From assembly GCA_003223415.1 (NCBI GenBank), contig QHUY01000017.1, positions 6,739 through 70,738 on the forward strand: DNA of 64,000 nt. Direction: 5' to 3'. A program made the position numbers and the translations under genes. Source of the DNA: Gemmatimonadota bacterium. Its GTDB lineage: Bacteria > Gemmatimonadota > Gemmatimonadetes > Gemmatimonadales > GWC2-71-9. This document shows positions 2,591 through 57,899 of this stretch, piece after piece. The notes below the pieces were generated by a model, which ran no database searches, was not told the DNA's origin, and was given only the letters and a program-made list of their open reading frames with translations. Position 1 is the first letter of the stretch; the number at the start of each line of letters is the position of its first letter.

Positions 2591-2605
2591 TTGGGAGGGG
2601 CGGGG

Positions 2606-22533: not shown

Positions 22534-24937
22534 CACCTGGCTGGAAGCGCTGAAGCTGCAGGAAGAGGAAGGGGATCCCAACCCCGACCTGTCGATCTAC
22601 AACCGCATCGGCGATCTCTACCTCAAGGTCAAGGACCCTGCGCAGGCGGCGGATTTCTACGACCGCGCGGTCGACCGGTACGCGGAGTTGGGCTTCCACA
22701 ACAACGCGATCGCGATGTGCAACAAGGTCCTCCGCAACGCGCCTGGCCGGCAGACGACCTACCTGAAGCTCGCCAAGCTGTACGCCGCCAAGGGGTTCAT
22801 CTCGGAGGCCAAACAGAACTTTGTCGAGTACGCCGAGCGGATGAAGCGGATGGGGAAGATCCAGCACGCCTTCGCCGCGCTGAAGGAGTTCACGGACATT
22901 TCGCCGGAGAGCGAGCACCTCCGGGACATGCTGGCCGAGCATCTCAAGATGTACGGTGAGGAGCCGCGGCGCTCAGCGGCCGGCATGCCCCGCGGCAGTA
23001 CGGCTGCGGCTCCGCCCCCGTCGTCGGAGGCGAAGACCGGGAGGCACAAGACCTCCAGCCTCGTCTTCCTGGATCTGGATGAGCCGTCGCCCCGGACCAG
23101 CAAGCTCGTGCGTGCGCCCGCGGCACCGGCTCGGCCGCCGGCGCCGCCGGCCGCCGCCGCCTCCCTCCTGGAGACCGTCACACCCGAGCCTGACACCTCG
23201 CTCGAAATCGAGACCACGAGCATGACGGACGAGGCGGAGCCCGAGCCCACCGCGGGCGGCATGCTGGAGGGGCTCGAGACGACGGGCGCGGACTTCTACG
23301 ACGTGCGGCGAGGCTCGGTGGACACCCCGTCGATCCGCGATGCGGAGCCCGTTCCCGACCTCGTGCCGATGGACGACCTCGAGCCGACGGTCCGCGCGGA
23401 GGCTGAGGAGGAGCAAGAGACCGAGTCGCTGTTGGGAGAGGGGTTTGAGCCCGAGGAGGCGCCGGCGCGTCAGCCTCCCCCGCGCCCGATGCCGAGGCCG
23501 CGAGTGCAGCCCGTCGTGCCCAAGCGGCCGTCCGCCCCGAGAGTGCAACCGGTCGTCCCCAAGCGGCCGTCCGCGGCGCCGAAAGCGGTCCCCACGCCGC
23601 CGCGGCCGACGCCACCGCCGTTCAAGGCGGCCCCTCCCAAGCGGAAGACGGTGGTGGAAATCCCGCCGCTCGACCTCGAGCCGGACTTCGAGACCGCGAC
23701 CACCGAGGGTGGTCACGACGTGGATGATCAGCCGCTCGCGATCGACGAACCCCGGGCGCACCCCAGCTGGCTGCAGACCGAGGACGACCTCTCCATCGTC
23801 GAGGGCGGCAGGAAGTCGACGTTCATCGACCTGGGGGTGGACGGGATCGTCAACCAGGGCGGTGCGAGCGGCTCGCTGGTGTTCTCGAGTATCGACGAGC
23901 CGTCAGCGGCGCCGACCATCGAGGAGCTGGAGGGGCGCGTCGCCGAGAACCCGGACGACGCAGAGGCGCACCAGGCGCTGGGGGAAGCGTTGATCGAGGC
24001 GGGGGAGCGCGAGCGCGGCGTCGAGGAGCTGGACATCGCGGTGAGCGGCTTCGAGTCGGTCGAGAACCTCCCACAGGCCCAGGACTTGGTGGAGGAGATC
24101 CTGCGCCTCGATCCCAACAGCGTGCGGCACCGCCAGAAGCAGGTCGAGCTGGCGTTCAACGCGGGGGACAAGGGCAAGCTGATCGACGCTTACCTCGAGT
24201 TGGCGGACACGCTGCTGCGCAGCGATCTGCCGGAGAAGGCGCGCGCCGTCTACGAGCGGGTGGTGGAGCACGACCGGAAGAACGAGCGCGCCAAGGCCGC
24301 CCTGGCCATGCTGTCGCCGTCGCCGGTCACGCCGGCCGCCAAGCCGGACAAGAAGGTCCAGGCGAAGGACGCGAAGATGACAGTGCGCGACGAGGCCGGG
24401 CCCGGGGGTGACTTCGTCGACCTCGGCGCGATGATGCTCGAGGACGAGGAGCCCGCGCGCAACACGCGCATGAAGGTGCAGGACGAGGAGCCCACGGGCG
24501 ACGAGGAGCAGGACTTCCACGACATGCTCGCCCGGTTCAAGCAGGGGATCGACGAGAACATCGACGAGGCGGACTTCCAGTCGCACTACGACCTCGGGGT
24601 CGCCTTCAAGGAGATGGGCCTGCTGGACGAGGCCATCGCCGAGTTCCAGAAAGCGCTGCGCGCCCCCGAGGGCAAGCTCCGCACGTCGGAGGCCTTGGGG
24701 GGGTGTTTCTTCGCGAAGGGAGCTTTCGGCGTCGCGGAATCGATCCTGCGGCGCGGCCTGGAGCTGCCGGCGTCGGGCGACCAGGAGCGCCTCGGCGTGC
24801 TCTATTGGCTGGGCCGCTCGCTGGAGGAGCAGGGCCGCAAAGCCGAAGCCAAGGACCTGTACGGACGCGTCACCGCCGTGGACATCCGCTTCATGGACGT
24901 GGGCGGGCGCGTGAAAGCACTCGCCAAGGCGAAATGA
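22463..24937 (+). CDS. large TPR-repeat protein with Pro-rich low-complexity centre
   Basis: 824 aa. TPR-like helices at both ends and an acidic/Pro-rich middle. No specific family recognised. Confidence 0.6.
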   Translation: MSKIEKLKEKAKALEAKDSRGAIDTWLEALKLQEEEGDPNPDLSIYNRIGDLYLKVKDPAQAADFYDRAVDRYAELGFHNNAIAMCNKVLRNAPGRQTTYLKLAKLYAAKGFISEAKQNFVEYAERMKRMGKIQHAFAALKEFTDISPESEHLRDMLAEHLKMYGEEPRRSAAGMPRGSTAAAPPPSSEAKTGRHKTSSLVFLDLDEPSPRTSKLVRAPAAPARPPAPPAAAASLLETVTPEPDTSLEIETTSMTDEAEPEPTAGGMLEGLETTGADFYDVRRGSVDTPSIRDAEPVPDLVPMDDLEPTVRAEAEEEQETESLLGEGFEPEEAPARQPPPRPMPRPRVQPVVPKRPSAPRVQPVVPKRPSAAPKAVPTPPRPTPPPFKAAPPKRKTVVEIPPLDLEPDFETATTEGGHDVDDQPLAIDEPRAHPSWLQTEDDLSIVEGGRKSTFIDLGVDGIVNQGGASGSLVFSSIDEPSAAPTIEELEGRVAENPDDAEAHQALGEALIEAGERERGVEELDIAVSGFESVENLPQAQDLVEEILRLDPNSVRHRQKQVELAFNAGDKGKLIDAYLELADTLLRSDLPEKARAVYERVVEHDRKNERAKAALAMLSPSPVTPAAKPDKKVQAKDAKMTVRDEAGPGGDFVDLGAMMLEDEEPARNTRMKVQDEEPTGDEEQDFHDMLARFKQGIDENIDEADFQSHYDLGVAFKEMGLLDEAIAEFQKALRAPEGKLRTSEALGGCFFAKGAFGVAESILRRGLELPASGDQERLGVLYWLGRSLEEQGRKAEAKDLYGRVTAVDIRFMDVGGRVKALAKAK
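23501..23578 (+). repeat. 2 x 39-nt in-frame tandem repeat (RVQPVVPKRPSAP/A)
   Basis: Units at 23501-23539 and 23540-23578 encode near-identical 13-mers and differ mainly at synonymous positions. Confidence 0.8.
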
Positions 24938-28691: not shown

Positions 28692-29564
28692 GTGGCCTAC
28701 ACCAGCGAAATCGAGAAGCTCGAACAGCGCTTCCGGGAGAACCCGAAGGGTCGCAACTTCGCTCCGCTGGCCGACGCCTATCGTAAAGGCGGGCTTATAG
28801 ATAACGCCATCGAGTTGTGCCAAACCGGTATCAAGTTGCACCCCGACTACATCAGTGCCCACATCGTCTACGGCCGCTGCCTGATCGACAAAAAGGACGA
28901 CCCCGCGGCCGAGGAAGTGTTCCGCAAGATCCTCCAGCTGGACCAGGAGAACATCCTCGCGCTCAAGGTGCTGGCGGAGATCGCCGATCGGAACAAACGG
29001 TTCGACCAGGAAGTCGAGTGGCTCAGCCGGTTGCTCTCGGTCGATCCCATGAACGGCGAAGCCGCCGAAGCGCTCTCCCGCGCCAGGAAAAAAGCGTCCT
29101 CCGCAAAGCCTGTCGAACCGGTCGCGGCGCCACCGCTCGGCATGGAGCCTACTGCTCTGGCCGAGGCTCCGACGGCCGCGATGGGCAAGCCGGACTTCGT
29201 CGTGGAACAGGCGTCGGCGCCCGAGGCGACTGTGCCAACGAAGTCGGCGCCTTCGGGCGATGTCGAGGCCTTCGACGGCACTGTCGACTTCAACGCCACG
29301 GCGCACGAGGCGGCCAAAGCCGCAGGGATTGAGGTCCAGGAAGACGTCGAACTGAAGGTGGACGCAGTCCCCCTCGAAGGGCTGGCCCGGACGCAGTACG
29401 AAGGCAGCGGGATGCCTGATATGCCGGATCATGCCGGAAGACGTCACGCCCCGTCGTTCGCCGCCCGCCGCCGCTCCTCCGCCCCCCCCCTCCCCCCCCC
29501 CGGCGCCACGCCGTACGCCGCCGCCCGCCCCCGCCCCCGTCCCAGCTGCGGTGGCCGCATCTGA
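28692..29564 (+). CDS. TPR protein, N-terminal part (frame broken near 29430)
   Basis: TPR helices (YRKGGLIDNAIELCQTGIKLHPDY...). After ~29430 the frame turns Arg-rich and looks out of frame. Confidence 0.6.
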   Translation: MAYTSEIEKLEQRFRENPKGRNFAPLADAYRKGGLIDNAIELCQTGIKLHPDYISAHIVYGRCLIDKKDDPAAEEVFRKILQLDQENILALKVLAEIADRNKRFDQEVEWLSRLLSVDPMNGEAAEALSRARKKASSAKPVEPVAAPPLGMEPTALAEAPTAAMGKPDFVVEQASAPEATVPTKSAPSGDVEAFDGTVDFNATAHEAAKAAGIEVQEDVELKVDAVPLEGLARTQYEGSGMPDMPDHAGRRHAPSFAARRRSSAPPLPPPGATPYAAARPRPRPSCGGRI

Positions 29565-35600: not shown

Positions 35601-37798
35601 ACCGGAAGGCCCGCCAAGAACTGATCGGCATCGGCGCCCTGGTCGTCGGGCTGTTCCTCGGCCTCACCCTGCTGCGACTCCCGATCACAGGCAGCTGGGG
35701 GCAAGGGATCGGCTCCCTGCTGTGGCAGATCGTCGGCGTAGGGGCCGTGCTGCTCCCGGCGCTCGGCATCGGGTGGGCGCTGGCCGCCTTCGAGCGCCTG
35801 GGCCGCCTGTCGAGCACCCGGGCGGCCGCGCTGGGAGCGGGGCTGGTCCTGCTGCTCCCCTACGGCATCGGCATCGCGACGGGACCCGGCATTCCCGCCG
35901 ACTACGCAACCTGGGGCCCGACCCAGAAGCTCGTCGGCACGCTCCCGACGGTGCTGGTCCGGGGAGTCCACAGCGCCGTGGGCACGGCCGGGGGCGTGCT
36001 GGTCGGCCTGTTCGCGCTGTCCGCCTTGGGGATCCTCACGATGGGATGGCATCCGCTCGTGGTCCTGAGAACCCGGGCGGCGGCGAGCGGGCGGCGGGAT
36101 GCGGGAAGCGGGATGCGGGATGGGTTGAAGGCGGCAGCGAGACCTCCTGAGGTCATTGCCGCCCCGCATCCCGTATCCCGGATCCCGAAGGAGCGGAAGG
36201 GACGGGGGGAGCCCACGCATCCCCCATCGCGCATCCCGCATCCCGTTCCCGAAGGGGTGCTCATTCCCCCGATCGAGCTCCTGACGCCCGCCCCCCCCGG
36301 GGACGGCAACGCCGGGCTGGCTCAGATCGAGCAGATGGGGCACAAGCTGATCGAGACGCTGCAGACCTTTCGCGTCGAAGGCTCGATCGCCGGCCGCACC
36401 GTCGGGCCCGTGGTGACGCAGTACGAGGTGGCGCCGGGGCCGGGCGTGAAGGTGGGTCGGATCGCCGCCCTCGCTGACGACCTGGCGCTCGCGATGCGCG
36501 CACCCTCCCTCCGCATCGTGGCGCCGATCCCGGGGAAGGCGGCGGTCGGGATCGAAGTGCCCAACCCGATGCCGCGGATGGTGCACATCCGCGAGCTGAT
36601 CGAGGGGGGGGAGTACCACCGCGGCACCCGCGTGCTGCCGATCGCCCTTGGCAAGAACCTCGAGGGCGACGCCGTCGTGGCGGATCTCGCGAAGATGCCG
36701 CACCTCCTGATCGCGGGCGTCACGGGCTCGGGGAAATCGGTCTGCATCAACACGATCATCACCAGCCTGCTCTACACACATCCCCCCGAGCGGCTCAAGC
36801 TGCTGATGGTCGACCCGAAGATGGTCGAGCTGTCCATGTACGCGGCGCTGCCGCACCTCGGCCTCCCCGTGGTGACCAACCATCACAAGGCGGCGAGCGT
36901 GCTCAAGTGGGCGGTGTGGGAGATGGAGCGACGCTATCGGCTGCTCCATGCCAACCACGCCCGCAACATCGTGGACTTCAACAAGAAGGTGGACGAGAAG
37001 AAGCCGCTCAAGGGGCCGCGCGAGACGCTCACCACGCAGGCGGGGATCCAGCGGGAACTGCCCCTCGACGGCGAGTACACCGACGGGATCCTCCCCTACA
37101 TCGTCCTCATCGTGGACGAGCTCGCGGACCTGATCCTCACGGTGCAGGGGGAGATCGAGACCCCGCTCGCGACTCTGGCTCAGAAGGCGCGCGCCATCGG
37201 GATCCATATCGTGCTCGCGACGCAACGGCCGTCGGTGAACGTCATCACGGGCCTCATCAAGGCGAACTTCCCGTGCCGGATCGCCTTCCGGGTGTCGGCC
37301 AAGGTGGACAGCCGCACGATTCTCGATCAGAACGGCGCCGAGACGCTGCTCGGTAACGGCGATATGCTGTTCCTCCCACCGGGGAAGAGCGAGCTGTTGC
37401 GGGTGCAGGGCGCGTTCATCTCCACGGAGGAGACCGAGCGCCTCATGGACTGGTACAAGGCGCACGCCGCGGCCGCCGCGCCCGCTGGGTCGAGCATCGG
37501 CGAGCAGGTCGCGGCGCTGGAAGAAGCGGAAAAGGCCGCGGAAGAGGGAGGGGGGAGCGGGGAGCAGGGAGGGGGAGAACGCGATCCCCTGTTCCGACAA
37601 GCCGCTGAGGTCTGCATCCAGAACCAGCTCGGCTCGACCTCGCTGCTGCAGCGTCGCATGAGCATCGGCTACGGCCGCGCGGCGCGCATCATCGACCAGC
37701 TGGAGGTCGCGGGCATTCTGGGCCCGGCCAACGGCAGCAAGCCGCGGGACGTGCTGGTAGGGCTCGAGGAGCTGAACGAGATCTGTGGGGCGACGTAG
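35597..37798 (+). CDS. ftsK: DNA translocase FtsK
   Basis: N-terminal TMs, a linker, a motor domain ([25 protein letters not shown]) and a C-terminal gamma winged helix (LLQRRMSIGYGRAARIID). Confidence 0.9.
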   Translation: MNRKARQELIGIGALVVGLFLGLTLLRLPITGSWGQGIGSLLWQIVGVGAVLLPALGIGWALAAFERLGRLSSTRAAALGAGLVLLLPYGIGIATGPGIPADYATWGPTQKLVGTLPTVLVRGVHSAVGTAGGVLVGLFALSALGILTMGWHPLVVLRTRAAASGRRDAGSGMRDGLKAAARPPEVIAAPHPVSRIPKERKGRGEPTHPPSRIPHPVPEGVLIPPIELLTPAPPGDGNAGLAQIEQMGHKLIETLQTFRVEGSIAGRTVGPVVTQYEVAPGPGVKVGRIAALADDLALAMRAPSLRIVAPIPGKAAVGIEVPNPMPRMVHIRELIEGGEYHRGTRVLPIALGKNLEGDAVVADLAKMPHLLIAGVTGSGKSVCINTIITSLLYTHPPERLKLLMVDPKMVELSMYAALPHLGLPVVTNHHKAASVLKWAVWEMERRYRLLHANHARNIVDFNKKVDEKKPLKGPRETLTTQAGIQRELPLDGEYTDGILPYIVLIVDELADLILTVQGEIETPLATLAQKARAIGIHIVLATQRPSVNVITGLIKANFPCRIAFRVSAKVDSRTILDQNGAETLLGNGDMLFLPPGKSELLRVQGAFISTEETERLMDWYKAHAAAAAPAGSSIGEQVAALEEAEKAAEEGGGSGEQGGGERDPLFRQAAEVCIQNQLGSTSLLQRRMSIGYGRAARIIDQLEVAGILGPANGSKPRDVLVGLEELNEICGAT
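36094..36250. repeat. heptamer-array inverted repeat embedded in frame in the ftsK linker
   Basis: GCGGGAT-type units at 36094-36124. Reverse-complement blocks at 36163-36187 and 36214-36250, both ending CCCGAAGG. Central palindrome GACCTCCTGAGGTC at 36141-36154. Confidence 0.75.
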
Positions 37799-37868
37799 CC
37801 GTCAGTCATCAGCCATCTGCCGTCAGTCACTGATGGCTGATAGCTGACGACTGACGGCAGATGGCTTG
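37798..37868. repeat. palindromic element of degenerate heptamers (CGTCAGT/CATCAGC/CATCTGC) just after the ftsK stop
   Basis: GCCATCTGCCGTCAGTC (37811-37827) pairs perfectly with GACTGACGGCAGATGGC (37849-37865). Alternative pairing registers are possible. Confidence 0.8.
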
Positions 37869-40140: not shown

Positions 40141-42771
40141 ATGCAGGCCGCCGCCATCCGCCGCAAGTTCCTCGACTACTTCGTTGCCCGCGGCCACCGG
40201 GAGGTGGCGAGCTCCTCCCTCGTCCCGGGCGATGACCCGACCCTCCTCTTCACCAACGCCGGCATGGTGCAGTTCAAGCGCGTGTTCCAGGGCCTCGAGC
40301 GGCGCGATTACCAGCGCGCCGTCACCTGCCAGAAATGCGTGCGCGCTGGCGGCAAGCACAACGATCTGGAGCAGGTCGGCCACACCGCCCGCCACCAGAC
40401 GTTCTTCGAGATGCTGGGCAACTTTTCCTTCGGGGACTACTTCAAGCAAGAGGCGATCGAATTCGCATGGGAGTGGGTGACGAGCTCGGAGTGGATGGGG
40501 ATCCATCCCGACCGGCTGTACGTCACCGTCCACCAGGCGGACGACGAGACCCGCCGGCTGTGGCGGAAGATCACCGGCATCGCCGACGCCCGCATCTACG
40601 GCCTCGGCGACAAGGACAACTTTTGGCAAATGGGTGACACGGGGCCCTGCGGACCGTGTTCCGAGATCCTGGTTGATGTCCGTGGGGAGCGGGGGAAGAG
40701 CGGCAAGGCTCCCACGCTCCAGGAGTTCGTGGCCGTGAGCGACGAGGGCGGGTTCCTCGAGATCTGGAATCTCGTGTTCATGCAGTACGATCAGCAGCCG
40801 GACGCATCCCGCATCCCGCTTCCCGCGCCTTCCGTCGACACGGGGGCGGGCCTCGAACGCACCGCCTCGGTGCTGCAGGGCGTGCCGTCGAACTTCGACA
40901 CCGATCTCTTCGTGCCGATCATCGAGCGGGCGATCGAAGTGGTGGGCAAGCCCTACGACCGGGGTCCGGCAGGTGCACCGTTCCGCGTGCTCGCCGATCA
41001 CGCCCGTGCGGTGGCGTTCCTGCTCGCGGACGGGGTCTACCCCGCCAGCGACGGCCGTGGCTACGTGCTGCGGCGCATCCTGCGGCGGGCGGTGCGCCAT
41101 GCCTGGCTGCTGGGCCGGCGCGAGCCGACGCTGGTGCACCTCGCCGGCACCGTCATCCACACGATGGCAGCGGTCTACCCCGAGCTCGCTGCGAAGCGCG
41201 TGCATATCGAGCAGGTGACGCGCGCCGAGGAGGATCGCTTCCTCGAGACGATCGACGGCGGGCTGCGACGGCTCGACGAGCTGAAGGGAGATGGGGCCAC
41301 GACGATTTCCGGCCACGACGCATTCAAACTGTACGACACCTACGGGTTCCCGCTCGACCTCACGCAGATGATCGCGGCCGAGCGCGGCCAGACGGTGGAC
41401 GTCGAGGGCTTCGAGCGCGCGCTCGCGGCGCAGCGACACCGCTCACGCGCGGCACGGAAACGGGGGGGGACGACCGGTCCGCTCCTGAAGACGAAGCAGG
41501 CCGGTGACTGGGTCATCGTCAAACCGAAGGGCCGCCAGAAGTGGGTTGGCTACGAGACGACCCGCGCGGAGACCGAGCCGATCGCCTTTCGCCAGGAGGG
41601 GGAGCGGCTCGAGCTGGTGCTGGCAGAGAATCCGTTTTACGCCGAGTCGGGGGGTCAGGTGAGCGACACCGGCGTCGTGCGAGGCGAGGGCTGGGAGCTG
41701 ACGATCGAGGACGTCGAGAAGGTGGACGGCAAGAGCGCTGTCGTCGGCACGTTCGGCGAGACGTTCGAGCCCACGCCCGCGCTGGCGCAGGTGAATGAGA
41801 CGCGCCGCCACAATATCGAGCGCAACCACACGGCGACGCACCTGGTGCACGCGGCCCTCCGCAAGATCCTCGGCACGCACGTGAGCCAGCAGGGGTCCGT
41901 CGTGGATCCTGAGCGCCTGCGCTTCGACTTCAGCCACCACGGGCCGATCTCCGGCGACGTGCTCGCCAGCATCGAGGAGGAGGTGAACCAGCATATCTGG
42001 GAGAACCTCCCGGTGCGGACGCGCGAGATGAAGTACAAGGAGGCGATCGACGCCGGAGCGATGGCGCTGTTCACCGAGAAGTACGGCGACGTCGTCCGCG
42101 TCGTGGACGTGTCCGGCGTCTCCCTGGAGCTGTGCGGGGGGACGCACGTGCCGACCACCGGGCAGATCGCGCTGTTCCGCTTCACCCACGAGACCGGAGC
42201 CGCGGCCAACGTGCGCCGCATCGAGGCGATCACCGGCCCCACGGCGTACCGCTACGCGCGGGAGCTGGAAGACCGGCTCAAGCAGGCCGCGAGCGTGCTC
42301 AAGACTCAGCCGGAACACCTGACGCGGCGCCTGGAAGCCCTGCTGGAGCAGCAGCGCAAGCACGAGAAGCAGATCGCGGAGCTGTTGAAGACGACATCCG
42401 GTAACGTCATGCCGCAGCAGGAGTACGTCCTGCCCGGGGGCGCGAAGTTGTACTACGGGCCCACCCCGCTCGAGGATCGGAACCAGATCGCCAAGTCCTT
42501 GGACCTCTTCCGCGAACGGCACTCGAGTGCAGTTTCTGTGATCGTTTGCCGATCGGCCGGCGGCCGTCCCGGCATCTATGTAGCGCTGACCGACGACCTG
42601 GTGGCGAAAGGATTCAGTGCGGGCGTCCTCGCCCAGGTGATTTCGTCCTCGACCGGAGCCAAAGGGGGCGGGCGGTCGCATTTTGCCTCCGGCGGCGTTG
42701 GAGAAACGACTACGGTGGAGGACTTGGTGACGCAGCTTCCCAGTCTGGTGTCCTCGGTCATCACGTCATGA
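40141..42771 (+). CDS. alaS: alanine--tRNA ligase
   Basis: 876 aa. Has FTNAGMVQFK, the editing-domain HTATHLVH...CGGTH and a DHHA1 C-terminus. Confidence 0.95.
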   Translation: MQAAAIRRKFLDYFVARGHREVASSSLVPGDDPTLLFTNAGMVQFKRVFQGLERRDYQRAVTCQKCVRAGGKHNDLEQVGHTARHQTFFEMLGNFSFGDYFKQEAIEFAWEWVTSSEWMGIHPDRLYVTVHQADDETRRLWRKITGIADARIYGLGDKDNFWQMGDTGPCGPCSEILVDVRGERGKSGKAPTLQEFVAVSDEGGFLEIWNLVFMQYDQQPDASRIPLPAPSVDTGAGLERTASVLQGVPSNFDTDLFVPIIERAIEVVGKPYDRGPAGAPFRVLADHARAVAFLLADGVYPASDGRGYVLRRILRRAVRHAWLLGRREPTLVHLAGTVIHTMAAVYPELAAKRVHIEQVTRAEEDRFLETIDGGLRRLDELKGDGATTISGHDAFKLYDTYGFPLDLTQMIAAERGQTVDVEGFERALAAQRHRSRAARKRGGTTGPLLKTKQAGDWVIVKPKGRQKWVGYETTRAETEPIAFRQEGERLELVLAENPFYAESGGQVSDTGVVRGEGWELTIEDVEKVDGKSAVVGTFGETFEPTPALAQVNETRRHNIERNHTATHLVHAALRKILGTHVSQQGSVVDPERLRFDFSHHGPISGDVLASIEEEVNQHIWENLPVRTREMKYKEAIDAGAMALFTEKYGDVVRVVDVSGVSLELCGGTHVPTTGQIALFRFTHETGAAANVRRIEAITGPTAYRYARELEDRLKQAASVLKTQPEHLTRRLEALLEQQRKHEKQIAELLKTTSGNVMPQQEYVLPGGAKLYYGPTPLEDRNQIAKSLDLFRERHSSAVSVIVCRSAGGRPGIYVALTDDLVAKGFSAGVLAQVISSSTGAKGGGRSHFASGGVGETTTVEDLVTQLPSLVSSVITS

Positions 42772-43103
42772 CGACGCAAGACGTGCTCACGTGGCTCGAT
42801 CAGCGTCGGCCGGCGCCGCCGCCGGTGCTCGCGGCCCATCTTGCGGCAGCGGCCGAGTCCTCTCCCCCCCCCCCCGCCCGGGAGGCCCTCCCGGGCTGCC
42901 TGGTCGAGCTTGGCCGCCGGCTGCTCGCCCGCGTGACCCGGGCGCCAGCAGGGGGGCGGGAGCTGGCGCTGGACTTGCTGGCCGCGGACGCGTTCGTCAC
43001 GTACGGCTTCGAGGCTCAAGCGGAGGCGGAGGTGGACGGCCTGACGGCGCTCGCCGAGCGCGTGGCCGGTGGTCGGGAGGGGATCGGGGAGCCCCGAGGA
43101 TGA
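42768..43103 (+). CDS. hypothetical protein (111 aa), translationally coupled on both sides
   Basis: ATGA overlaps with the alaS stop and with the next gene's start. No recognisable motif. Contains a 12-nt C run. Confidence 0.4.
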   Translation: MTTQDVLTWLDQRRPAPPPVLAAHLAAAAESSPPPPAREALPGCLVELGRRLLARVTRAPAGGRELALDLLAADAFVTYGFEAQAEAEVDGLTALAERVAGGREGIGEPRG

Positions 43104-43869: not shown

Positions 43870-44433
43870 TTGGGGGAGGGCGGCGGAGGGGGGCTCGCCG
43901 CCCTCGCGAGCCGCGTCGCCGCCGAGCAGGCCGACGCGATCGCCGCCATCGCGGCGCGCTACGAGCAAACGCTGCGCGCGGGCGGGGCGCTGTACTTCGC
44001 CGGCAACGGCGGCAGCGCCGCCGACGCGCAGCACATCGCCACGGAGTACGTGGTCCGCTACCAGACCAGTCGCCCCGGCCTGCGGGCTGTGGCGCTCACC
44101 ACCGACACCTCGCTCCTCACCGCCTGCGCCAACGACATGGGCTTCGACGAGGTGTTCGCGCGCCAGGTCGAGGCGCTGACGAAGCCGGAAGACCTCCTCG
44201 TGCTGCACTCGACGAGCGGCGAGAGCCCCAACGTGGTGCGCGCCGCGCAGGCCGCGAAGGCCCGCGGCGTGCCGATCGTCGCTTTCCTGGGCAAGGGCGG
44301 GGGTCAGGTCAAGGACCTCGCCGACATCGTCCTCATCGTCCCCTCGGACGACACCGCGCGCATCCAGGAGCTGCACCTGGCCATCGAGCATGTAATCTGC
44401 GAGATCGTGGAAGACCGGATGCGGGTCGGGTGA
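43870..44433 (+). CDS. SIS-domain phosphoheptose isomerase-like protein
   Basis: Has FAGNGGSAADAQHIATE and LHSTSGESPNV. Start is uncertain (TTG). Confidence 0.7.
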   Translation: MGEGGGGGLAALASRVAAEQADAIAAIAARYEQTLRAGGALYFAGNGGSAADAQHIATEYVVRYQTSRPGLRAVALTTDTSLLTACANDMGFDEVFARQVEALTKPEDLLVLHSTSGESPNVVRAAQAAKARGVPIVAFLGKGGGQVKDLADIVLIVPSDDTARIQELHLAIEHVICEIVEDRMRVG

Positions 44434-45191
44434 TTGACCTGACGGGGAAGCGGGCATTCGTCACGGGCGGGGGCCGCGGCATCGGCCGGGCCACGGCACT
44501 GCTGCTGGGGCGGGCGGGCGCCGCAGTGGCGGTGGGATACCGCAGCCGCCAGGACGAGGCGGCGGCCACCGTCGAGGCGATCGGGCGGTCGGGCGGCCGG
44601 GCGGTCGCGGTCGCGGGCGATCTGGGGGAGGCGGCGAGCGCCGCCCGCGCGGTCACGGACGTCGTCCGCGCGCTCGGCGGGATCGACCTGCTGATCGTGA
44701 ACCACGGCGTCTGGCCCGCCGACGATGCCCCGCTCGCCGCGATGGCGGACGCGCAATGGCAGGAGACCCGGCGCGCGAACTACGATGCCGTCTTCTACGT
44801 CTGCCGCGCCGCGATCCCCCACCTGGGCGACGGCGGCAAGATCGTCCTCGTCTCCTCCACGGCGGGCCAGCGCGGCGAGGCCTTCCACGCCGACTACGCC
44901 GCCACCAAGGGCGCGGTCATCGCGCTCACCAAGTCGCTTGCGGTCGAGCTCGCCCCTCGGGTCAACGTCAACTGCGTGGCGCCTGGGTGGGTGGACACGG
45001 AGATGTCGGCCCAACCGTACCAACGGGAGGCGGGAGCCGGGAGACGGGAGATCGAGCGGACGATCCCGCTGGGCCGCGTGGCGAGTCCTGAGGACGTGGC
45101 GGGACCGATCGCCTTCCTGTGCTCCCATCTCGCGCGGCACATCACTGGGGAAATCCTGAACGTCAACGGCGGCTCAGTGCTCTGCGGATGA
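44430..45191 (+). CDS. short-chain dehydrogenase/reductase (FabG-like)
   Basis: Has TGGGRGIGRA, NHG and YAATKGAV. Confidence 0.8.
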   Translation: MIDLTGKRAFVTGGGRGIGRATALLLGRAGAAVAVGYRSRQDEAAATVEAIGRSGGRAVAVAGDLGEAASAARAVTDVVRALGGIDLLIVNHGVWPADDAPLAAMADAQWQETRRANYDAVFYVCRAAIPHLGDGGKIVLVSSTAGQRGEAFHADYAATKGAVIALTKSLAVELAPRVNVNCVAPGWVDTEMSAQPYQREAGAGRREIERTIPLGRVASPEDVAGPIAFLCSHLARHITGEILNVNGGSVLCG

Positions 45192-46390
45192 CCTTTCCGG
45201 CCCGCCTCGCCATCCCGCCCGAGGTTCTCAAGATCGCCAAGCGTCTCGAGGGGGCCGGCTTCGAGACCTGGTGCGTCGGCGGCGCTATCCGCGACAACCT
45301 GCTCGGCACCGAGAACCACGATTTCGACCTGACCACGGCCGCCCCGCCCCAGGAGGTGCAGCGGCTGTTCAAGCGCACGGTGCCTGTCGGCGTCGAGCAC
45401 GGCACCGTCGCCGTGTTGGACGCGAAGAACCGCCCGCACGAGGTCACCACGTTCCGCAAAGACATCCGCACCGATGGCCGCCACGCGGTGGTGGAGTTCG
45501 GCGTGTCGCTCATGGACGACTTGGCGCGGCGGGACTTCACGATCAACGCGATCGCCTATCACCCGCTGCGGCACGAGTGGCGCGATCCGTTCAACGGGCG
45601 GGCCGACCTGGACAAGAAGGTGATCCGCTCGGTCGGGGACCCGAACTGGCGCTTTCAGGAGGACTACCTGCGCATCCTCCGGGCGCTGCGCTTCAGCGCG
45701 CGGTTCGCCTTCCGCATTCAGTCCCGGACGCTGGAGGCCGCCAAGGCCAACGCCCAGGGACTGGCGCAGCTGTCGGCGGAGCGGGTGCGGGACGAGTGGT
45801 TCAAGGGGATCGCCACGGCGCGGAAGGTGAGCAAGCTCGTGGCGCTGTGGGGGGAGGTCGGGGCGGCGCGGATCTGGCTGCCGGAACTCCAACAGACGGG
45901 AAAGGGGAATGGGGAAAGGGGAATCGCGAAGGCCGTCGACAAGCTGCCCCGTGACCCCGTGTTGATCACAGCCTTTCTCGCCTCCGACCCCGCCTCCTTG
46001 CTCACGCGGCTCAAGTGCTCCAACAAGGACATCGAGCGCGGGCGCGCGATCGCGCAATGGCGCGACAAGTACCCGGACCCGAGGCACTTGCCGGGAGTGC
46101 GGCGCTGGTTGTCGGAGGTTGGCGCTCATGCAGACGACCTGCTCGCCTTGCTGGGAGGCTACGCATCGCGCATCCCGCATCCCGTATCCCGGCTCCCTCA
46201 ACTGGTCGCGTCCATCCGGGCCGCCAAGGATCCCCTCACCCTCCAAGACCTCGCGGTGAACGGCTCCGACCTGCTGGCGGCCGGGGTGCGTGCGGGGCCC
46301 GGCGTCGGGGAGACCCTGCAACGGCTGCTGGCGGAGGTGCTCGAGGATCCCGCCCGGAACACCCGGGAATATCTGCTGTCCCGTGTCTAG
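45188..46390 (+). CDS. cca: tRNA nucleotidyltransferase / poly(A) polymerase family (CCA-adding type)
   Basis: ATG 45188 overlaps the SDR stop. Has WCVGGAIRDNLLG..DFDL, the RRDFTINA motif and EDYLRILRALRF. Confidence 0.8.
   Translation: MTFPARLAIPPEVLKIAKRLEGAGFETWCVGGAIRDNLLGTENHDFDLTTAAPPQEVQRLFKRTVPVGVEHGTVAVLDAKNRPHEVTTFRKDIRTDGRHAVVEFGVSLMDDLARRDFTINAIAYHPLRHEWRDPFNGRADLDKKVIRSVGDPNWRFQEDYLRILRALRFSARFAFRIQSRTLEAAKANAQGLAQLSAERVRDEWFKGIATARKVSKLVALWGEVGAARIWLPELQQTGKGNGERGIAKAVDKLPRDPVLITAFLASDPASLLTRLKCSNKDIERGRAIAQWRDKYPDPRHLPGVRRWLSEVGAHADDLLALLGGYASRIPHPVSRLPQLVASIRAAKDPLTLQDLAVNGSDLLAAGVRAGPGVGETLQRLLAEVLEDPARNTREYLLSRV
45898..45925. repeat. GGGGAAW heptamer array in frame in cca
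   Basis: GGGAAAG GGGAATG GGGAAAG GGGAATC, translated as GKGNGERG. Confidence 0.7.
46162..46196. repeat. ATCCCGC-type heptamer array in frame in cca
   Basis: CGCATCG CGCATCC CGCATCC CGTATCC CGGCTCC, translated as ASRIPHPVSRLP. Confidence 0.7.
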
Positions 46391-47102
46391 CGCCCTGCTG
46401 TATGCCCTGGTCGCCGCTCTGGGCAACGTGCTCGGCGGCCTGGCGGTGGTGCGGCGGGCGGCACGGGGCCTCAGGCTGATCGAGCACTTCGTGGCGTTCG
46501 GCGCCGGGTTCATGCTGGCGGTCGCGATCGTCGAGATCCTCCCGGAAGCGTTCGCGCGCAGCGGCCGGGCCGCGCCCGCCCTGGTGCTCGCGGGCTATTT
46601 GGCGGTGCACCTGACGCAGCACACGCTGACGACCCATTTTCACTTCGGCGAGGAGACCCACCATGTCAATGACGTCGCGGGGACGTCCGCGCTCGTGGGG
46701 TTGCTGCTCCACACCTTCTTCGACGGGGTGGCCATCGCCAGCGCCTTCCTCGTCGGGCCGCAGTTGGGGGCGATGGTGTTCGTCGCCATCTTCCTGCATA
46801 AGCTGCCGGAAGGCGTGACGATCTCGAGCCTCTACCTGGCGGTCGGGCGGTCGGCCGGTCAGGCGGTCAGCGCGGCCGCGCTGCTCGGGTTGGCGACGCT
46901 GGCCGGTGTGCTGCTCACGGACTACGTGGGGTTCTTGGTGCGGCACGGGCTGGCCCTGTCGGCCGGCGTGACGATCTACGTGGCCGCCTCAAACCTGGTT
47001 CCTGAGTTCCAGGGGAAACGGGGTTGGAAACTGCCGGCCGCGTTTTTCGCGGGCGCCGGGACCTTTTTTGTTACGAAGCTGATTCTTGACCATGCGGTGT
47101 GA
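46383..47102 (+). CDS. ZIP family metal transporter
   Basis: GTG 46383. Polytopic membrane protein with HxxFDGxAI and HKLPEGVTISS motifs. Confidence 0.8.
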   Translation: MSSALLYALVAALGNVLGGLAVVRRAARGLRLIEHFVAFGAGFMLAVAIVEILPEAFARSGRAAPALVLAGYLAVHLTQHTLTTHFHFGEETHHVNDVAGTSALVGLLLHTFFDGVAIASAFLVGPQLGAMVFVAIFLHKLPEGVTISSLYLAVGRSAGQAVSAAALLGLATLAGVLLTDYVGFLVRHGLALSAGVTIYVAASNLVPEFQGKRGWKLPAAFFAGAGTFFVTKLILDHAV

Positions 47103-47117
47103 TCGGAAAACGAGAAT

Positions 47118-47201
47118 CGGGATCCGCGATGCGGGATGCGCGATGCGCGATGCGTGATGCGAGAGGCGGGATGCGCGATGCGGGATGCGGGATGCGTGAC
47201 G
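47118..47201. repeat. uninterrupted array of 12 heptamers (consensus CGNGATG), left arm of the four-helix-bundle cassette
   Basis: Counted by hand: 12 consecutive period-7 units from 47118 to 47201. The array ends one base before the TCA stop complement (47203-47205) of the minus-strand gene. Confidence 0.85.
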
Positions 47202-47202
47202 A

Positions 47203-47559
47203 TCAGCGGCTCATCAGCCTGCGGATCAGGCCGATGGTCATCGCCACGACTCGTTCGCATAGGTCGATGCACGGTTGGAGTTCTGTTTCGGGCATGAGGC
47301 CCAGGCTCTTGAGGAGTGTAAGGTGACTGAGCAGCTCTGTAGACGAGCCCAGAGCTATCTTCAAGCACCGAACGAACTGCGCGGTGGTTCCGAGCGCATA
47401 CCCTTCTGCGATGTTCGCGGGGATGGAGATCGCGGCTCTACGGATCTGATCGACGAGTGCGAAGTGCTTGGAAACGGTTGGGGTGGTGGTCAGCAGGTAG
47501 GCTGCCCGCGCGAGCTCCTGGGCTCCGCGCCAGGTATCCAACTTCTGGAGTCTCCGCAT
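47203..47559 (-). CDS. four-helix-bundle protein (TIGR02436 / 23S rRNA intervening-sequence protein / Avd-like family)
   Basis: 118 aa starting MRRLQKLD. Family signature AISIPANIAEGYALG...IALGSSTELLSHL. Visibly AT-richer than its neighbours. The rest of the 241-aa tracked ORF is translated repeat. Confidence 0.85.
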   Translation of the reverse strand: MRRLQKLDTWRGAQELARAAYLLTTTPTVSKHFALVDQIRRAAISIPANIAEGYALGTTAQFVRCLKIALGSSTELLSHLTLLKSLGLMPETELQPCIDLCERVVAMTIGLIRRLMSR

Positions 47560-47624
47560 GGCGCTAAGGTAGCGCCGTGGAACGAGACTCAGCGTACCGG
47601 AATCGCGCAAGAGCGGATTGCTTT

Positions 47625-47700
47625 GACGCACGCATCCCGCATCCCGCATCTCGCATCCCGGCCGTGGCGCGCATCCCGCATCCCCCATCTCGCATCCCGA
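47625..47700. repeat. reverse-complement heptamer array (GCATCCC units, two blocks), right arm of the cassette
   Basis: Blocks at 47625-47659 and 47671-47698 are split by the 11-nt linker GGCCGTGGCGC. The inner block is complementary to 47167-47201 with about 2 mismatches. Confidence 0.85.
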
Positions 47701-47719
47701 CTCTCTCCTCCCGTCTCCC

Positions 47720-49093
47720 GTGTCTGAACCCTCCCTCTTCCAGCGCTCCGCCGCGCCGCTCGCGGCCCGGATGCGCCCGCGCACCCTCGACGGCTTCCTC
47801 GGCCAGGAGAATCTCCTGGGACCGGGCAAGGCGCTGGGCGAGCTCATCCGCCGGGGCGACGTCGGGTCGTGCATCTTCTGGGGGCCGCCGGGCTCGGGCA
47901 AGACGACGCTCGCCAAGATCATCGCCAACTACACCGACCGGCACTTCGAGCCGTTTTCGGCCGTCACCGAAGGGGTGGGCCGCGTCCGCGAGATCATCAA
48001 GGAAGCTGAGGAGCGGCTCAAGTTTCCGGGGCAGGGCACGATCCTGTTCTGCGACGAGATCCACCGCTTCAATCGCGCCCAGCAGGACGCGTTCCTGCCG
48101 TGGGTGGAGAACGGGATCATCACCCTCATTGGCGCCACGACGGAGAACCCGAGCTTCGAGCTGACGGGGGCGCTGCTGTCACGCTGTCGCGTGTTCGTGC
48201 TCGAGCCGTTGCGTGAAGAGCACATCCGCGCCCTGGTGGAGCGCGCTTTGCAGGACCGCGACCAGGGGCTGGGCCACCTGGAGCTCCAGATCGACGACGA
48301 CGCCCTCGCCTTGCTGGCCCGCGAGGCGGACGGCGACGCCCGGCGGGCGCTGCAAGCCCTCGAAGCGGCAGCGGAATACACGACGGGGAAAGGGGAAAGG
48401 GGAATGGGGAAGCGTGGTCCGTCTGACCGTCCGACCGTCCGACTGTCCGTCGGTGTTATCGCGGATGCCCTTCAGAAACGCTTCGCGAAGTACGACAAGG
48501 GCGGCGAGGAACACTTCAACTTGATCTCCGCGCTCCACAAGGCGGTGCGCGGGTCGGACGTGGAAGGGGCATTGTACTGGCTGGCGCGCATGCTGGCCGG
48601 CGGGGAGGATCCCCTCTACCTGGCGCGCCGCATCGTGCGCATGGCGAGCGAGGACATCGGGCTGGCCGATCCCCGGGCGCTGTCGGTCGCGCTGGCGGCG
48701 AAGGACGCTTACCACTTCCTGGGCAGCCCGGAAGGCGAGCTCGCGCTGGCGGAGGCCGTCATCTACCTTGCCACCGCACCCAAGTCGAACAAGGTGTACG
48801 AGGCGTTCGGCCGGGCGGCCGAGGCGGCGCGGGAGCACCCGGCCGCGCCCGTGCCGTTGCACATCCGCAACGCCCCGACGCCGTTGATGAAAGAACTCGG
48901 CTACGGCGAAGGGTACAAGTACGCACACGGCTTCGCGGGCGCGTACGTCCCGCAGGAGTATCTGCCCGAGCCCTTGCGCGGCCAGCGCTGGTACGACCCC
49001 ACGGAGTTCGGATACGAGAAGACGGTCAAGGAGAGGATGGAGTGGTGGGAGAAGCTCAAGAGGGAATGGGGACTGGGGACTGGGGAAAGGTGA
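47720..49093 (+). CDS. rarA: replication-associated recombination protein A (MgsA/RarA AAA+ ATPase)
   Basis: Has [20 protein letters not shown], and a MgsA_C region (FNLISALHKAVRGSDVEGALYWLARML, EDIGLADP). Confidence 0.9.
   Translation: MSEPSLFQRSAAPLAARMRPRTLDGFLGQENLLGPGKALGELIRRGDVGSCIFWGPPGSGKTTLAKIIANYTDRHFEPFSAVTEGVGRVREIIKEAEERLKFPGQGTILFCDEIHRFNRAQQDAFLPWVENGIITLIGATTENPSFELTGALLSRCRVFVLEPLREEHIRALVERALQDRDQGLGHLELQIDDDALALLAREADGDARRALQALEAAAEYTTGKGERGMGKRGPSDRPTVRLSVGVIADALQKRFAKYDKGGEEHFNLISALHKAVRGSDVEGALYWLARMLAGGEDPLYLARRIVRMASEDIGLADPRALSVALAAKDAYHFLGSPEGELALAEAVIYLATAPKSNKVYEAFGRAAEAAREHPAAPVPLHIRNAPTPLMKELGYGEGYKYAHGFAGAYVPQEYLPEPLRGQRWYDPTEFGYEKTVKERMEWWEKLKREWGLGTGER
48385..48453. 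repeat. GGGGAAA heptamer array followed directly by a CGTCCGAC octamer array, in frame in rarA
   Basis: 48385-48412 is GGGGAAA x2, GGGGAAT, GGGGAAG. 48416-48453 holds the octamers. Translated as GKGERGMGKRGPSDRPTVRLSVG, in the variable linker between the AAA+ lid and MgsA_C. Confidence 0.75.
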
Positions 49094-49140
49094 CAAAGCG
49101 CACTCACAGTACCATTCCCCATTCCCCCTTCCCCCTTCCC
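49062..49140. repeat. hairpin of GGGAATG/GGGACTG heptamers spanning the rarA stop codon
   Basis: Left arm 49062-49090, TGA at 49091-49093, 21-nt spacer, right arm 49112-49140 (CCATTCC CCATTCC CCCTTCC CCCTTCC). Confidence 0.8.
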
Positions 49141-56570: not shown

Positions 56571-57527
56571 GTGGAGCGCGCCTATCTGATGGGCGCGCCG
56601 CGCAAAGGCAGCGACGACGCGCTGCGCGCCGAGGAGCATCTCGACGAGCTGGCGCGGCTCGCCGACACCGCCGGCGCCGCCGTCATCGGCCGCACCTTCC
56701 AGCGGGTCGACGCCCCCACACCGAACTACTTCCTCGGGGCTGGCAAGGTCGAGGAGCTGAAGAGTCTGCTGGGCGCCGCCGGGGCGACGCTGCTGCTATT
56801 CGACGAAGGCCTCTCCCCGGTGCAGGGCGTCAACCTCGAGCGGGCGCTCGGCATCCGCGTGATGGACCGGACCGAGGTCATCCTCGACATCTTCGCGACC
56901 CGCGCGCGCAGCCACGAAGCGAAGCTCCAGGTCGAGTTGGCGCAGCTCGAGTACCTGTTGCCGCGTCTCACGCGGATGTGGACTCACCTCTCGCGGATCC
57001 GCGGCGGCATCGGGCTGCGGGGCCCGGGCGAGACGCAGCTCGAAACGGACCGGCGCGTCATCCGCAAGAAGATCTCCACTCTACGGCGGCGGCTCGAGGA
57101 CGTGGCCGACCACCGCGCCAACCAGCGCCAAGGACGGCGCGACCTGCCCAGCGCCGCCCTGGCCGGCTACACCAACGCCGGCAAATCCAGCCTGCTGCGC
57201 GCGCTCTCAGGGGGAGGGGCCGACGTGTTCGTCGAGGACCGGCTCTTCGCCACCCTCGACACCCTCACCCGCGAGGTGGAGGTGGGGGACAACTACCGCG
57301 TCCGCCTCACCGACACTGTCGGGTTCATCCGCAAGCTGCCACACCACCTCGTCGCGTCGTTTCGCGCGACGCTCGAGGAGGCGCGCGAGGCGGACCTGCT
57401 GCTGCACGTCATCGACGCGGGACATCCGGCGTGGGAGGAACAGGTGGAGGTGGTGGACCGGGCGCTCATCGAAATGCGGAACTCGGAACTCGGAACGCGG
57501 AACGACAGTGGCAGTGCGGAGCGCTAG
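56571..57527 (+). CDS. hflX: GTPase HflX, N-terminal 318 aa ending at an in-frame TAG
   Basis: HflX N-domain, G1 GYTNAGKSSLL and G3 DTVGF. The frame continues after TAG 57525-57527 into the next ORF. Confidence 0.8.
   Translation: MERAYLMGAPRKGSDDALRAEEHLDELARLADTAGAAVIGRTFQRVDAPTPNYFLGAGKVEELKSLLGAAGATLLLFDEGLSPVQGVNLERALGIRVMDRTEVILDIFATRARSHEAKLQVELAQLEYLLPRLTRMWTHLSRIRGGIGLRGPGETQLETDRRVIRKKISTLRRRLEDVADHRANQRQGRRDLPSAALAGYTNAGKSSLLRALSGGGADVFVEDRLFATLDTLTREVEVGDNYRVRLTDTVGFIRKLPHHLVASFRATLEEAREADLLLHVIDAGHPAWEEQVEVVDRALIEMRNSELGTRNDSGSAER
57471..57505. repeat. GGAACTC/GGAACGC heptamer array in frame in hflX
   Basis: GAAATGC GGAACTC GGAACTC GGAACGC GGAACGA, translated as EMRNSELGTRN. 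Confidence 0.75.
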
Positions 57528-57539
57528 CGCGTCATTCAT

Positions 57540-57899
57540 GTGTTCAACAAGGCGGACCTGCTACCCGATCCGGAGGCGTTCCTCGCCCAGGTACGAGAGC
57601 GGTATCCCCACGCCGTGCTCACCTCATCTGTTCCGCATTCCGCATTCCGCACTCCGCATTCAGGTGTTGAGGGGCTGCGGGCCGTCCTCCGGACCTCCGC
57701 CCAGGCCCTCCGCCCCATCGCCCAGATCCGCGTGCCCCTGGCCGACGGCCGGCTGCTTGCCAACCTGCATCGTGACGCCGAGGTTATGGAGCAGGTGCAG
57801 ACCGATGGCGTCGTCGTGATCACCGCGCGGGTGGAGGCCAAGCTCTTGGGCAAGCTCCGCCGGGAAGGGGTGGAGGTGCTGTTGGGAACCGAGTTGTGA
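57540..57899 (+). CDS. hflX: HflX C-terminal fragment (G4 NKxD onward), same frame as 56571-57527
   Basis: VFNKADL is the G4 motif. The GVEGL (G5 region) follows the second repeat arm. Confidence 0.6.
   Translation: MFNKADLLPDPEAFLAQVRERYPHAVLTSSVPHSAFRTPHSGVEGLRAVLRTSAQALRPIAQIRVPLADGRLLANLHRDAEVMEQVQTDGVVVITARVEAKLLGKLRREGVEVLLGTEL
57627..57661. repeat. CGCATTC heptamer array (reverse orientation) in frame in hflX
   Basis: TCTGTTC CGCATTC CGCATTC CGCACTC CGCATTC, translated as SVPHSAFRTPHS. Nearly identical to the arm at 2566-2586. Confidence 0.75.

Follow-up and report, generated by a model that had tools for sequence, protein, structure and literature searches.

What are the short tandem arrays that crowd around one small gene in a 64-kb stretch of DNA from a soil Gemmatimonadales bacterium, and what ties them to that gene? 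The stretch as a whole, hereafter the window, has a G+C content of 70%. The gene encodes a four-helix-bundle (4HB) protein, and an initial annotation of the sequence had described a dispersed family of arrays of 7–8-nt units, usually in inverted pairs, with eight arms lying close to it. We find that the gene sits between a G-rich heptamer array and the reverse complement of that array, and that this is a rule across phyla, with the same units occurring elsewhere in the genome without the open reading frame (ORF). This ties together two puzzles of about 30 years' standing, the nature of the heptamer repeats dispersed through large genomes such as those of cyanobacteria and xanthomonads and the function of the small proteins of 23S rRNA intervening sequences (IVSs), and makes both testable.

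The repeats are of a known but unexplained kind, the short tandemly repeated repetitive (STRR) or G-rich heptamer sequences. Cyanobacterial STRR sequences were reportedly described by Mazel and co-workers in 1990, and GGGGACT, a unit found in the window, is the unit of Nostoc and of STRR1. Rehm et al. (2015; PMC4692102) described dispersed arrays of GGGAATC in Xanthomonas and of GGGGAYT in Nostoc, with a mode of four units and frequent convergent inverted pairs. Those arrays were intergenic in 89–93% (Xanthomonas) and 68% (Nostoc) of cases and coding in 7–11% and 32%; related species have them at matching intergenic positions, where they differ in length and sequence. They have no known function: G-quadruplexes (G4) formed in vitro, and no regulatory role was found. 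As cited in the same paper, Mrazek (2007) found an excess of heptamer repeats in large G+C-rich genomes.

The IVS of the Coxiella 23S rRNA encodes a protein of the PF05635 family (Warrier et al., 2016; PMC4990558). The inverted repeats at its ends make a 28-bp stem within which RNase III cuts, it carries 3–4 tandem GACAGAT heptamers in strain-variable number, and its ORF is apparently decaying and not translated. Searches of the open-access literature for a link between PF05635/TIGR02436/S23p and heptamer repeats turned up only this single-organism Coxiella note, and an earlier report may exist elsewhere. What appears to be new is the systematic pairing of the repeats with PF05635 genes, an architecture identical to that of the IVS, and the in-frame occupation of housekeeping-protein loops in Gemmatimonadales.

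The four-helix-bundle gene and its arms

The 4HB gene lies between the ZIP transporter gene and rarA, antisense to both, and its cassette comprises the following features.

47203–47559, minus strand: 4HB gene, 118 amino acids; PF05635 (23S_rRNA_IVP) and TIGR02436; Pfam E 3e-27
47118–47196, plus strand: cassette left arm, (CGSGATG) x11, G-rich on this strand (Tandem Repeats Finder)
47625–47699, plus strand: cassette right arm, (CGCATCC) in blocks 47629–47660 and 47668–47699, reverse complement of the left arm
47103–47125, plus strand: degenerate outer left-arm remnant (CGGAAAA CGAGAAT CGGGATC), common to the orthologous cassette of the related locus L011; pairs with 47700–47721 in the predicted fold
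47700–47721, plus strand: right-arm remnant on the outer side, continuing into the rarA start codon (predicted fold and comparison with L011)

The protein matched PF05635 with 95.2 bits (cut-off 33.8) over profile positions 1–105 of 106 and TIGR02436 with 94.9 bits (cut-off 24), and it carries the family motif R-x3-S-x3-N-x2-E, as quoted in PMC3936711, in the form QIRRAAISIPANIAEGY. Judged by sequence similarity, its closest solved relative is XCC0516 (PDB 2GSC, E = 1.3e-14), the 4HB protein of Xanthomonas campestris. The supplementary table of PMC4692102 places GGGAATC array no. 15 (four units) across the start of XCC0516, a position on which the authors did not comment. Pfam found only PF05635 in the window protein and no HUH (Y1) transposase, and PADLOC gave no match that would make the gene a member of a defence system. 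The G+C content of the gene is 60.5%, against 70% for the window, and at third codon positions 75%, against 88–90% in the neighbouring genes.

The two arms are complementary at 97% over 32 nt and at 82% over 51 nt. In the predicted minimum-energy fold of the 626-nt cassette they pair over about 90 nt, with −310 kcal/mol compared with −248 kcal/mol for shuffled sequences (z = −9.8). No target-site duplication was seen at the cassette junction. The cassette is not in helix 9, 25 or 45 of 23S rRNA, and no Rfam family, rRNA included, was found in the window at gathering scores.

The shared 4HB protein family, the terminal stem and the tandem heptamers identify the window cassette as the same kind of element as the Coxiella IVS, outside an rRNA gene. 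Like the 23S rRNA IVSs of Leptospira and Coxiella (the S23p element), it has a PF05635 ORF inside terminal inverted repeats, which form a stem of about 28 bp in the IVSs. Further likenesses are the tandem heptamers, strain-variable in the 5′ arm of the Coxiella element, a G+C content below that of the host and a sporadic, lineage-specific distribution. The window cassette differs in lying antisense between protein-coding genes and in its longer arms (9–11 units plus the older outer arms), and arrays of its family also occur without an ORF, even inside protein-coding sequence.

The layout recurs across phyla

When the window 4HB protein was used to scan one genome per species, 80 loci emerged, chosen by protein alone. 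They span at least six phyla (Gemmatimonadota, many Cyanobacteria, Alphaproteobacteria, Planctomycetota, Acidobacteriota and others), the alphaproteobacterial genera being Brevundimonas, Hyphomicrobium, Devosia, Bosea and Microvirga. Within 300 nt of the 4HB ORF, period-7 arrays reached 2.30/kb, 20 times their density elsewhere (0.115/kb), so the enrichment near 4HB genes that the initial annotation had proposed as a check was borne out over 80 loci from several phyla. Period 8 was about ninefold denser near the gene, with 5 arrays near and 8 far, and periods 5, 6, 9 and 10 had no comparable excess there (0–1 arrays each).

Arrays flanked the gene on either side in 39 loci, and in 35 of these the units of the two arms were reverse complements at six or more of seven positions, in 24 at all seven. 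The G-rich arm was 5′ in 36 of the 39 and the C-rich arm came first in none. Median copy numbers of the two arms were 4.1 and 4.4, and the median gap was 45 nt between the first arm and the start codon and 27 nt between the stop codon and the second. The layout that recurs is thus a G-rich heptamer in four copies, about 45 nt, the 4HB ORF, about 27 nt and the complementary C-rich heptamer in four copies. Scored by gap-tolerant alignment, a flanking inverted repeat with a score of at least 36 was present at 54 of 70 4HB genes (77%) and at 1 of 390 positions drawn at random from those loci (0.3%).

The heptamer unit differs by lineage and by 4HB subfamily. Cyanobacterial loci have AACAGGG and AGGGTGT, alphaproteobacterial loci AGTCGGC, Brevundimonas GGGGTGT and Gemmatimonadales AAGCGGG; the alphaproteobacterial 4HB genes also show units with only GG tracts (AGTCGGC, AACAGGC and AATCGGC). 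Within the cyanobacteria the unit type tracks the 4HB subfamily, with 4HB identity of 82% for pairs that share a unit and 63% for pairs with different units. Other arrays of a locus match the unit of its 4HB arms in 42% of cases, compared with 13% for units taken from other loci, and array density is about twofold higher 0.3–2 kb from the 4HB gene than 2–6 kb away. The 4HB ORF lies below the G+C content of its host locus in 79 of 80 loci. Long-spaced complementary arrays in other loci (665–1731 nt) were considered as further cargo types and were rejected; they enclose ordinary genes.

Arrays without an ORF in the window

With our own periodicity detector (score of at least 13), 12 period-7 and 4 period-8 arrays were found in the window and none of periods 4–6 or 9–12; a third-order Markov simulation of the window gave a chance expectation of about 0.03 arrays per period. 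Tandem Repeats Finder recovered everything that the initial annotation had listed. It placed the eight clustered arms at 45898–45924, 46162–46191, 47118–47196, 47631–47699, 48385–48411, 48419–48449, 49062–49086 and 49112–49140, with copy numbers of 3.6 to 11.3, and the others at 2472/2561, 10516, 17968, 36094/36163/36216, 37797 and 57477/57631. To these we add an unpaired member at 40803–40826, in the alanyl-tRNA synthetase (AlaRS) gene. Eight of the approximately 20 family members lie within 3.3 of the 64 kb (45898–49140), where about one is expected (Poisson P ~1e-5).

Most window arrays have 3.4–4.4 units, the left arm beside the 4HB gene having 11, and most stand in inverted pairs with the G-rich array preceding the C-rich one. 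Seven pairs are complementary, and most inverted pairs give stems of 25–35 bp; fold z-scores of the complementary pairs range from −3.2 to −9.6 for those without an ORF and reach −9.8 for the 4HB cassette. The arrays other than the cassette arms are as follows.

45898–45924, plus strand: (GGGGAAW) x3.7, in frame in a variable loop of the CCA-adding enzyme gene; peptide GKGNGERG
46162–46191, plus strand: (CGCATCC) x4.3, in frame in the CCA-adding enzyme gene; peptide SRIPHPVSR
48385–48411, plus strand: (GGGGAAA) x3.9, in frame in a variable loop of RarA/MgsA; peptide GKGERGMGK; identical in 10 assemblies
48419–48449, plus strand: (CCGTCCGA) x3.9, period 8, adjoining the 48385 array in the RarA loop; present in L011 too
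49062–49086, plus strand: (GGGGACT/GGGAATG) x3.6, G-rich hairpin arm in the last codons of rarA (REWGLGTGER*); z = −4.5
49112–49140, plus strand: (CCATTCC/CCCTTCC) x4.1, C-rich partner of 49062, between the rarA stop and the likely LEA_2 start
2472–2591, plus strand: intergenic ORF-less pair (GAATGCG)x4.3 – 59 nt – (ATTCCGC)x4.4, upstream of tsaB; z = −9.6
36094–36245, plus strand: (GCGGGAT)x4.1, (CCCGCAT)x3.6 and (CGCATCC)x4.3, in frame in the FtsK linker; z = −5.3
37797–37868, plus strand: intergenic hairpin after ftsK with period-7 arms of a different unit class; z = −7.0
40803–40826, plus strand: (CGCATCC)x3.4, unpaired, in AlaRS; ancestral loop replaced at equal length
57477–57661, plus strand: hflX pair (CGGAACT)x3.9 – 127 nt – (TTCCGCA)x4.4, enclosing native coding sequence that includes the NKxD motif; z = −3.2

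The pair at 37797–37868 is the only one in the window in which the C-rich array comes first. The CCGTCCGA unit recurs at 10516–10550, at the N-terminus of tolB, and that array has no partner, in keeping with the unpaired tolB copy of the initial annotation. The adjacent arms of different class that it had placed at 48385 and 48416 are likewise neighbours that are not complementary and form no hairpin (z = +1.3).

Coding sequence holds 12 of the 20 window members (about 60%), yet the arrays are about sixfold denser per kilobase in non-coding DNA. The coding arrays are in frame and contain no stop codons; they lie in variable loops, linkers and termini of the CCA-adding enzyme, RarA, FtsK, AlaRS, HflX and TolB. 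The spacers that hold the ORF-less arrays outside genes are short. An ancestral loop was replaced at equal length at three sites (HflX site 1, CCA site 1 and AlaRS), and the other coding sites are 2–13 residues longer. The length of the RarA loop at 48385 varies by 0–13 residues among Gemmatimonadales homologues, many of which have GKGE-type peptides. For annotation, this means that the repeats are the source of peptides that recur in forms like IPHPASR, GMRDAGC and GKGERG, and that arrays can occupy loops of essential proteins in frame. No internal sequence was shared between the spacers of paired arrays, which were mutually unrelated or native gene sequence.

In sequence the units GCGGGAT and GGGGAAW allow a G4, and GCGGAAT and CGGAACT, which have only GG tracts, do not. 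The arrays resemble the STRR and Xanthomonas–Nostoc heptamers in their tandem G3–4 N3–4 units, their mode of four, their dispersal and their convergent pairs, and GGGGACT is reported for Nostoc. They differ in phylum, in the coexistence of several unit classes, including GG-only units and octamers, and in the coding fraction of about 60%. The proposal of an STRR-like heptamer family in a non-cyanobacterial, G+C-rich genome therefore held, since the arrays have about four units, form convergent pairs and are dispersed as in PMC4692102.

Three other candidates were set aside. A period-7 match at 45023–45051, in the dehydrogenase gene, encodes the peptide REAGAGRREIER, which is conserved in all relatives; this indicates chance periodicity and not family membership. 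Sub-threshold Rfam matches to miRNA precursors at 49058–49140 reflect only a generic hairpin. The arrays are not a CRISPR array either, their units being 7–8 nt, head to tail and without spacers (CRISPR arrays have repeats of 20–50 nt and unique spacers).

The hflX gene has an in-frame TAG at 57525–57527, where L011 and the related locus L014 have AAG; the frame is intact afterwards, through the NKxD motif and the C-terminal domain. This codon lies between, not within, the two arrays and may mark a pseudogene, a split gene or a base error. No exact match to the truncated HflX product was found in look-ups.

Arrays in relatives and conspecific strains

Orthologous loci were collected through RarA homologues, with RarA identity to the window of 92% (L011), 86% (L013) and 83% (L014). 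The site is empty in L013 and L014: the ZIP gene ends on the start codon of rarA (ATGA), with no 4HB gene, and 21 kb of each locus contain essentially no period-7 arrays. The cassette and the arrays were therefore gained in the lineage of the window. The rarA-end hairpin (49062/49112) is missing from both loci, as is the 46162 array, where both run 15–24 nt shorter. This absence from syntenic regions bears out the suggestion that the arrays are lineage-specific and not coding low complexity shared with distant relatives.

L011 has arrays at the same sites as the window, with other units. Its 4HB arms are (CGGGAAA)/(CGTTTCC), compared with (CGGGATG)/(CGCATCC) in the window, the rarA-end hairpin is (CGGGAAA)/(TTTCCCG), compared with (GGGGAMT)/(AKTCCCC), and the HflX pair, at the same two sites, is (GGGGAAT)/(TCCCCAG), compared with (CGGAACT)/(TTCCGCA). 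Both arms have changed and the stem has been kept in all three complementary pairs that the two loci share. The two cassettes have outer arm remnants in common, and their inner arms differ. The 4HB proteins at the orthologous site (window 47203–47559, L011 3095–3450) are about 58% identical, the products of the flanking genes about 92%; either the 4HB gene evolves very fast or the cassette has been replaced at the same site.

Up to 10 independent same-species assemblies (two NCBI genome bins and soil metagenomes, 97–99.9% identity) carry identical arrays, which are therefore not assembly artefacts. Among conspecific strains the left arm (47118–47196) varies, with 130, 137 or 144 nt between anchors, and the coding arrays are invariant; the 7-nt steps of the intergenic alleles point to slippage by whole units.

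The arms at 45898 and 46162 are not complementary in the window strain and are complementary, with 46162 as the C-rich arm, in sister strains and in L011, where the pair encloses 230 nt of native CCA-adding enzyme sequence. CCA site 1 is (GCGGGAT)x4 in these strains and in L011. The CCA loop (window 45880–45990) has two conspecific alleles, (GGGGAAW)x4 or (GCGSGAT)x4, with an extra run of single-nucleotide polymorphisms downstream, which indicates a recombination tract from a diverged lineage.

Census of GCGGGAT arrays in metagenomes

Among the matches listed, to which all counts in this census refer, (GCGGGAT)3 was found in at least 120 metagenome contigs with G+C contents of 27% to 75%, so the arrays extend, as had been anticipated, well beyond this window. 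These contigs hold 245 period-7 arrays, compared with 2–23 for other periods. The copy-number mode of the (GCGGGAT)n arrays is 4. Of the 101 with enough sequence between them and the contig ends, half are accompanied by a complementary array no more than 700 nt away, and 28 of the 29 unique complementary pairs are G-first. Spacer lengths cluster at 15–21, 33–120, 189–222 and 431–486 nt, the last being the 4HB cassette. Only 5 of the 120 contigs have 4HB genes, four of them within 76 nt of an array, and about 3% of the arrays adjoin such a gene; ORF-less arrays thus greatly outnumber cassettes.

In contig L211 (4757–5322), which has a G+C content of only 51%, a 4HB gene is flanked by the GCGGGAT unit; one unit therefore serves cassettes of unrelated lineages. 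Contigs often end at or a few bases from a heptamer array, as does the start of L001 (window 57452) and as do many of the (GCGGGAT)3 contigs. This indicates that the arrays break short-read assemblies, and metagenome assembly is affected accordingly.

Explanations for the arrays

The explanation that best accounts for the data as a whole, and that we consider probable, is an IVS-type 4HB cassette together with ORF-less arrays of the same family, with RNase III cleavage of the stem, template switching and protein binding as putative steps. Transcripts of either strand would fold the arms into a double-stranded RNA stem of at least 25–30 bp. By analogy with Coxiella, RNase III would cut this stem, which would sever host transcripts and either set the enclosed RNA free or inactivate it. 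Template switching during replication creates and maintains hairpins (PMC8794818); acting between nearby inverted sequences, it would overwrite a short stretch with the reverse complement of nearby sequence, and it could thereby supply new complementary arms and keep them complementary. It would explain the native coding spacers and the equal-length replacement of loops, which a one-piece mobile insertion would not. Homology to Avd, a nucleic-acid-binding cofactor of a polymerase with the same type of fold (PMC10053308), suggests that the 4HB protein could bind the nucleic-acid structures of the arms, and the protein may help the arrays to spread.

Several points weigh against this explanation. 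The 80 loci are those closest to the window protein; Avd of the diversity-generating retroelements, the Bacteroidota members and others were left out. About 23% of the sampled 4HB genes have no strong flanking inverted repeat, and about half of the metagenome (GCGGGAT)n arrays listed have no partner within 700 nt. The neighbouring 48385 and 48419 arrays do not pair. The proposed RNase III cleavage is drawn by analogy from Coxiella, and cutting long stems in housekeeping mRNAs (hflX and the CCA-adding enzyme gene) would come at a high cost. Arm mismatches on the sense strand are as often A·C (58) as G·U (62), so there is no strand-specific signature of selection on RNA, and the covariation of the arms could be homogenisation at the DNA level; this parity is neither support for nor evidence against a role at the RNA level. 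At CCA site 1, two alleles that differ by a recombination tract explain what had looked like rewriting of the units in situ. A stem by itself gives no reason to expect the strict G-first polarity. As a speculation, Rho would load onto a free C-rich 5′ arm, and such an arm could be selected against.

Four other explanations were weighed. Repetitive extragenic palindromic (REP) sequences and their REP-associated tyrosine transposases (RAYTs) offer a model in which the 4HB protein would recognise its own heptamer arrays and create or propagate them with host enzymes, its gene being the autonomous copy between the repeats that it services and the ORF-less arrays its dependants. A single gene flanked by inverted copies of a dispersed, short palindromic repeat is the signature that revealed the RAYTs, and the unit of the local 4HB arms in ORF-less arrays, the tracking of 4HB subfamily by unit type and the fall of array density with distance from the gene fit the same scheme. 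The strict polarity suggests a directional process, the relative Avd assists a polymerase, and the low G+C content of the ORF is typical of selfish genes. We nevertheless regard this explanation as rather doubtful. The 118-residue protein has no known catalytic fold and is no HUH/Y1 transposase, the annotation shows neither a reverse transcriptase nor a transposase within about 10 kb, and co-inheritance of arms and gene explains the correlation of subfamily and unit without binding. Moreover, the Coxiella ORF is apparently decaying and untranslated, and the arrays are tandem and not a fixed palindrome, as in REPs and REPINs, their mobility being only putative. A broader proposition, that the STRRs, the Xanthomonas GGGNATC arrays and the window arrays form with stand-alone 4HB proteins one widespread two-component system in which the protein recognises arrays of its own unit and drives their G-first creation or spread, is tentative and in our view has the odds against it; if true, it would be a repeat-plus-protein system like REP/RAYT in logic that could colonise rRNA helices, intergenic spacers and the loops of essential proteins. 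The homologous fold and family of Avd also brought diversity-generating retroelements into consideration (PMC10053308). They were rejected: there is no reverse transcriptase among the annotated neighbours (no RVT family was found among the genes annotated at 37135–57452, the part of the window covered by that scan), no template/variable repeat pair nearby and no adenine-mutagenesis pattern.

The arrays have also been read as G4 regulatory elements, the proposal made for Xanthomonas and Nostoc, in which four G-tracts form a G4 in DNA or RNA that modulates neighbouring genes. The GCGGGAT, GGGGAAW and GGGGACT arrays are indeed G3–4 N3–4 four times over, with the preference for four units that was seen alongside G4 formation in vitro in PMC4692102. 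We think this unlikely, since units with only GG tracts, in the window and at alphaproteobacterial 4HB genes, share the architecture, complementarity of the two arms is a universal feature that competes with G4 formation, and the proposing authors found no regulatory role. Plain slippage, in which the arrays are functionally independent of the 4HB gene and the cassette simply carries them or tends to land in them, draws on the heptamer excess that PMC4692102 cites for large G+C-rich genomes, on the 7-nt steps among window strains and on the 97% of listed metagenome arrays that are not beside a 4HB gene. It fails on the complementary arms of 35 of 39 cassettes, on the polarity (36:0 in the loci and 28:1 in the metagenome pairs listed), on the mode of four units with covariation of whole arms, and on the 20-fold higher density near 4HB genes in phyla that use different units, and we consider it quite improbable. 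Least credible is a miniature inverted-repeat transposable element or other transposon, as which the inverted terminal repeats, dispersal, lineage-specific presence and often short length (loops of 15–120 nt) might be taken. The spacers have no sequence in common, some of them are native conserved coding sequence (HflX NKxD and the CCA-adding enzyme gene), an array may take the place of a loop without changing its length, the cassette junction lacks a target-site duplication, and single unpaired arms are common. The same observations bear on the REP-like, non-autonomous mobile element of the initial annotation, which does not fit pairs that bracket native coding sequence (127 nt in HflX, 230 nt in the CCA-adding enzyme gene); of its interpretation, the STRR-like family and the 4HB link stand and mobility is unproven.

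Neighbouring genes and other observations

The genes around the cassette are listed below.

44430–45191: short-chain dehydrogenase
about 45200–46390: CCA-adding enzyme / poly(A) polymerase
46401–47102: ZIP transporter
47720–49093: RarA/MgsA, start codon GTG at 47720
downstream of rarA: LEA_2 protein

The genome bin GCA_001917625.1 (L001) does not contain 48898–48975 (78 nt, in frame, giving a RarA of 431 amino acids) or 42808–42869 (62 nt, intergenic after alaS, beside a run of 12 C). At 50217, close to where a polysaccharide deacetylase gene begins, the window has one T more than seven other same-species assemblies; the protein has 308 amino acids in the window and 282 as called elsewhere. 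A run of about 20 C stands at 29482–29501 inside a C/G-rich low-complexity stretch, and at 23498–23574 a 39-nt unit occurs twice inside a long ORF.

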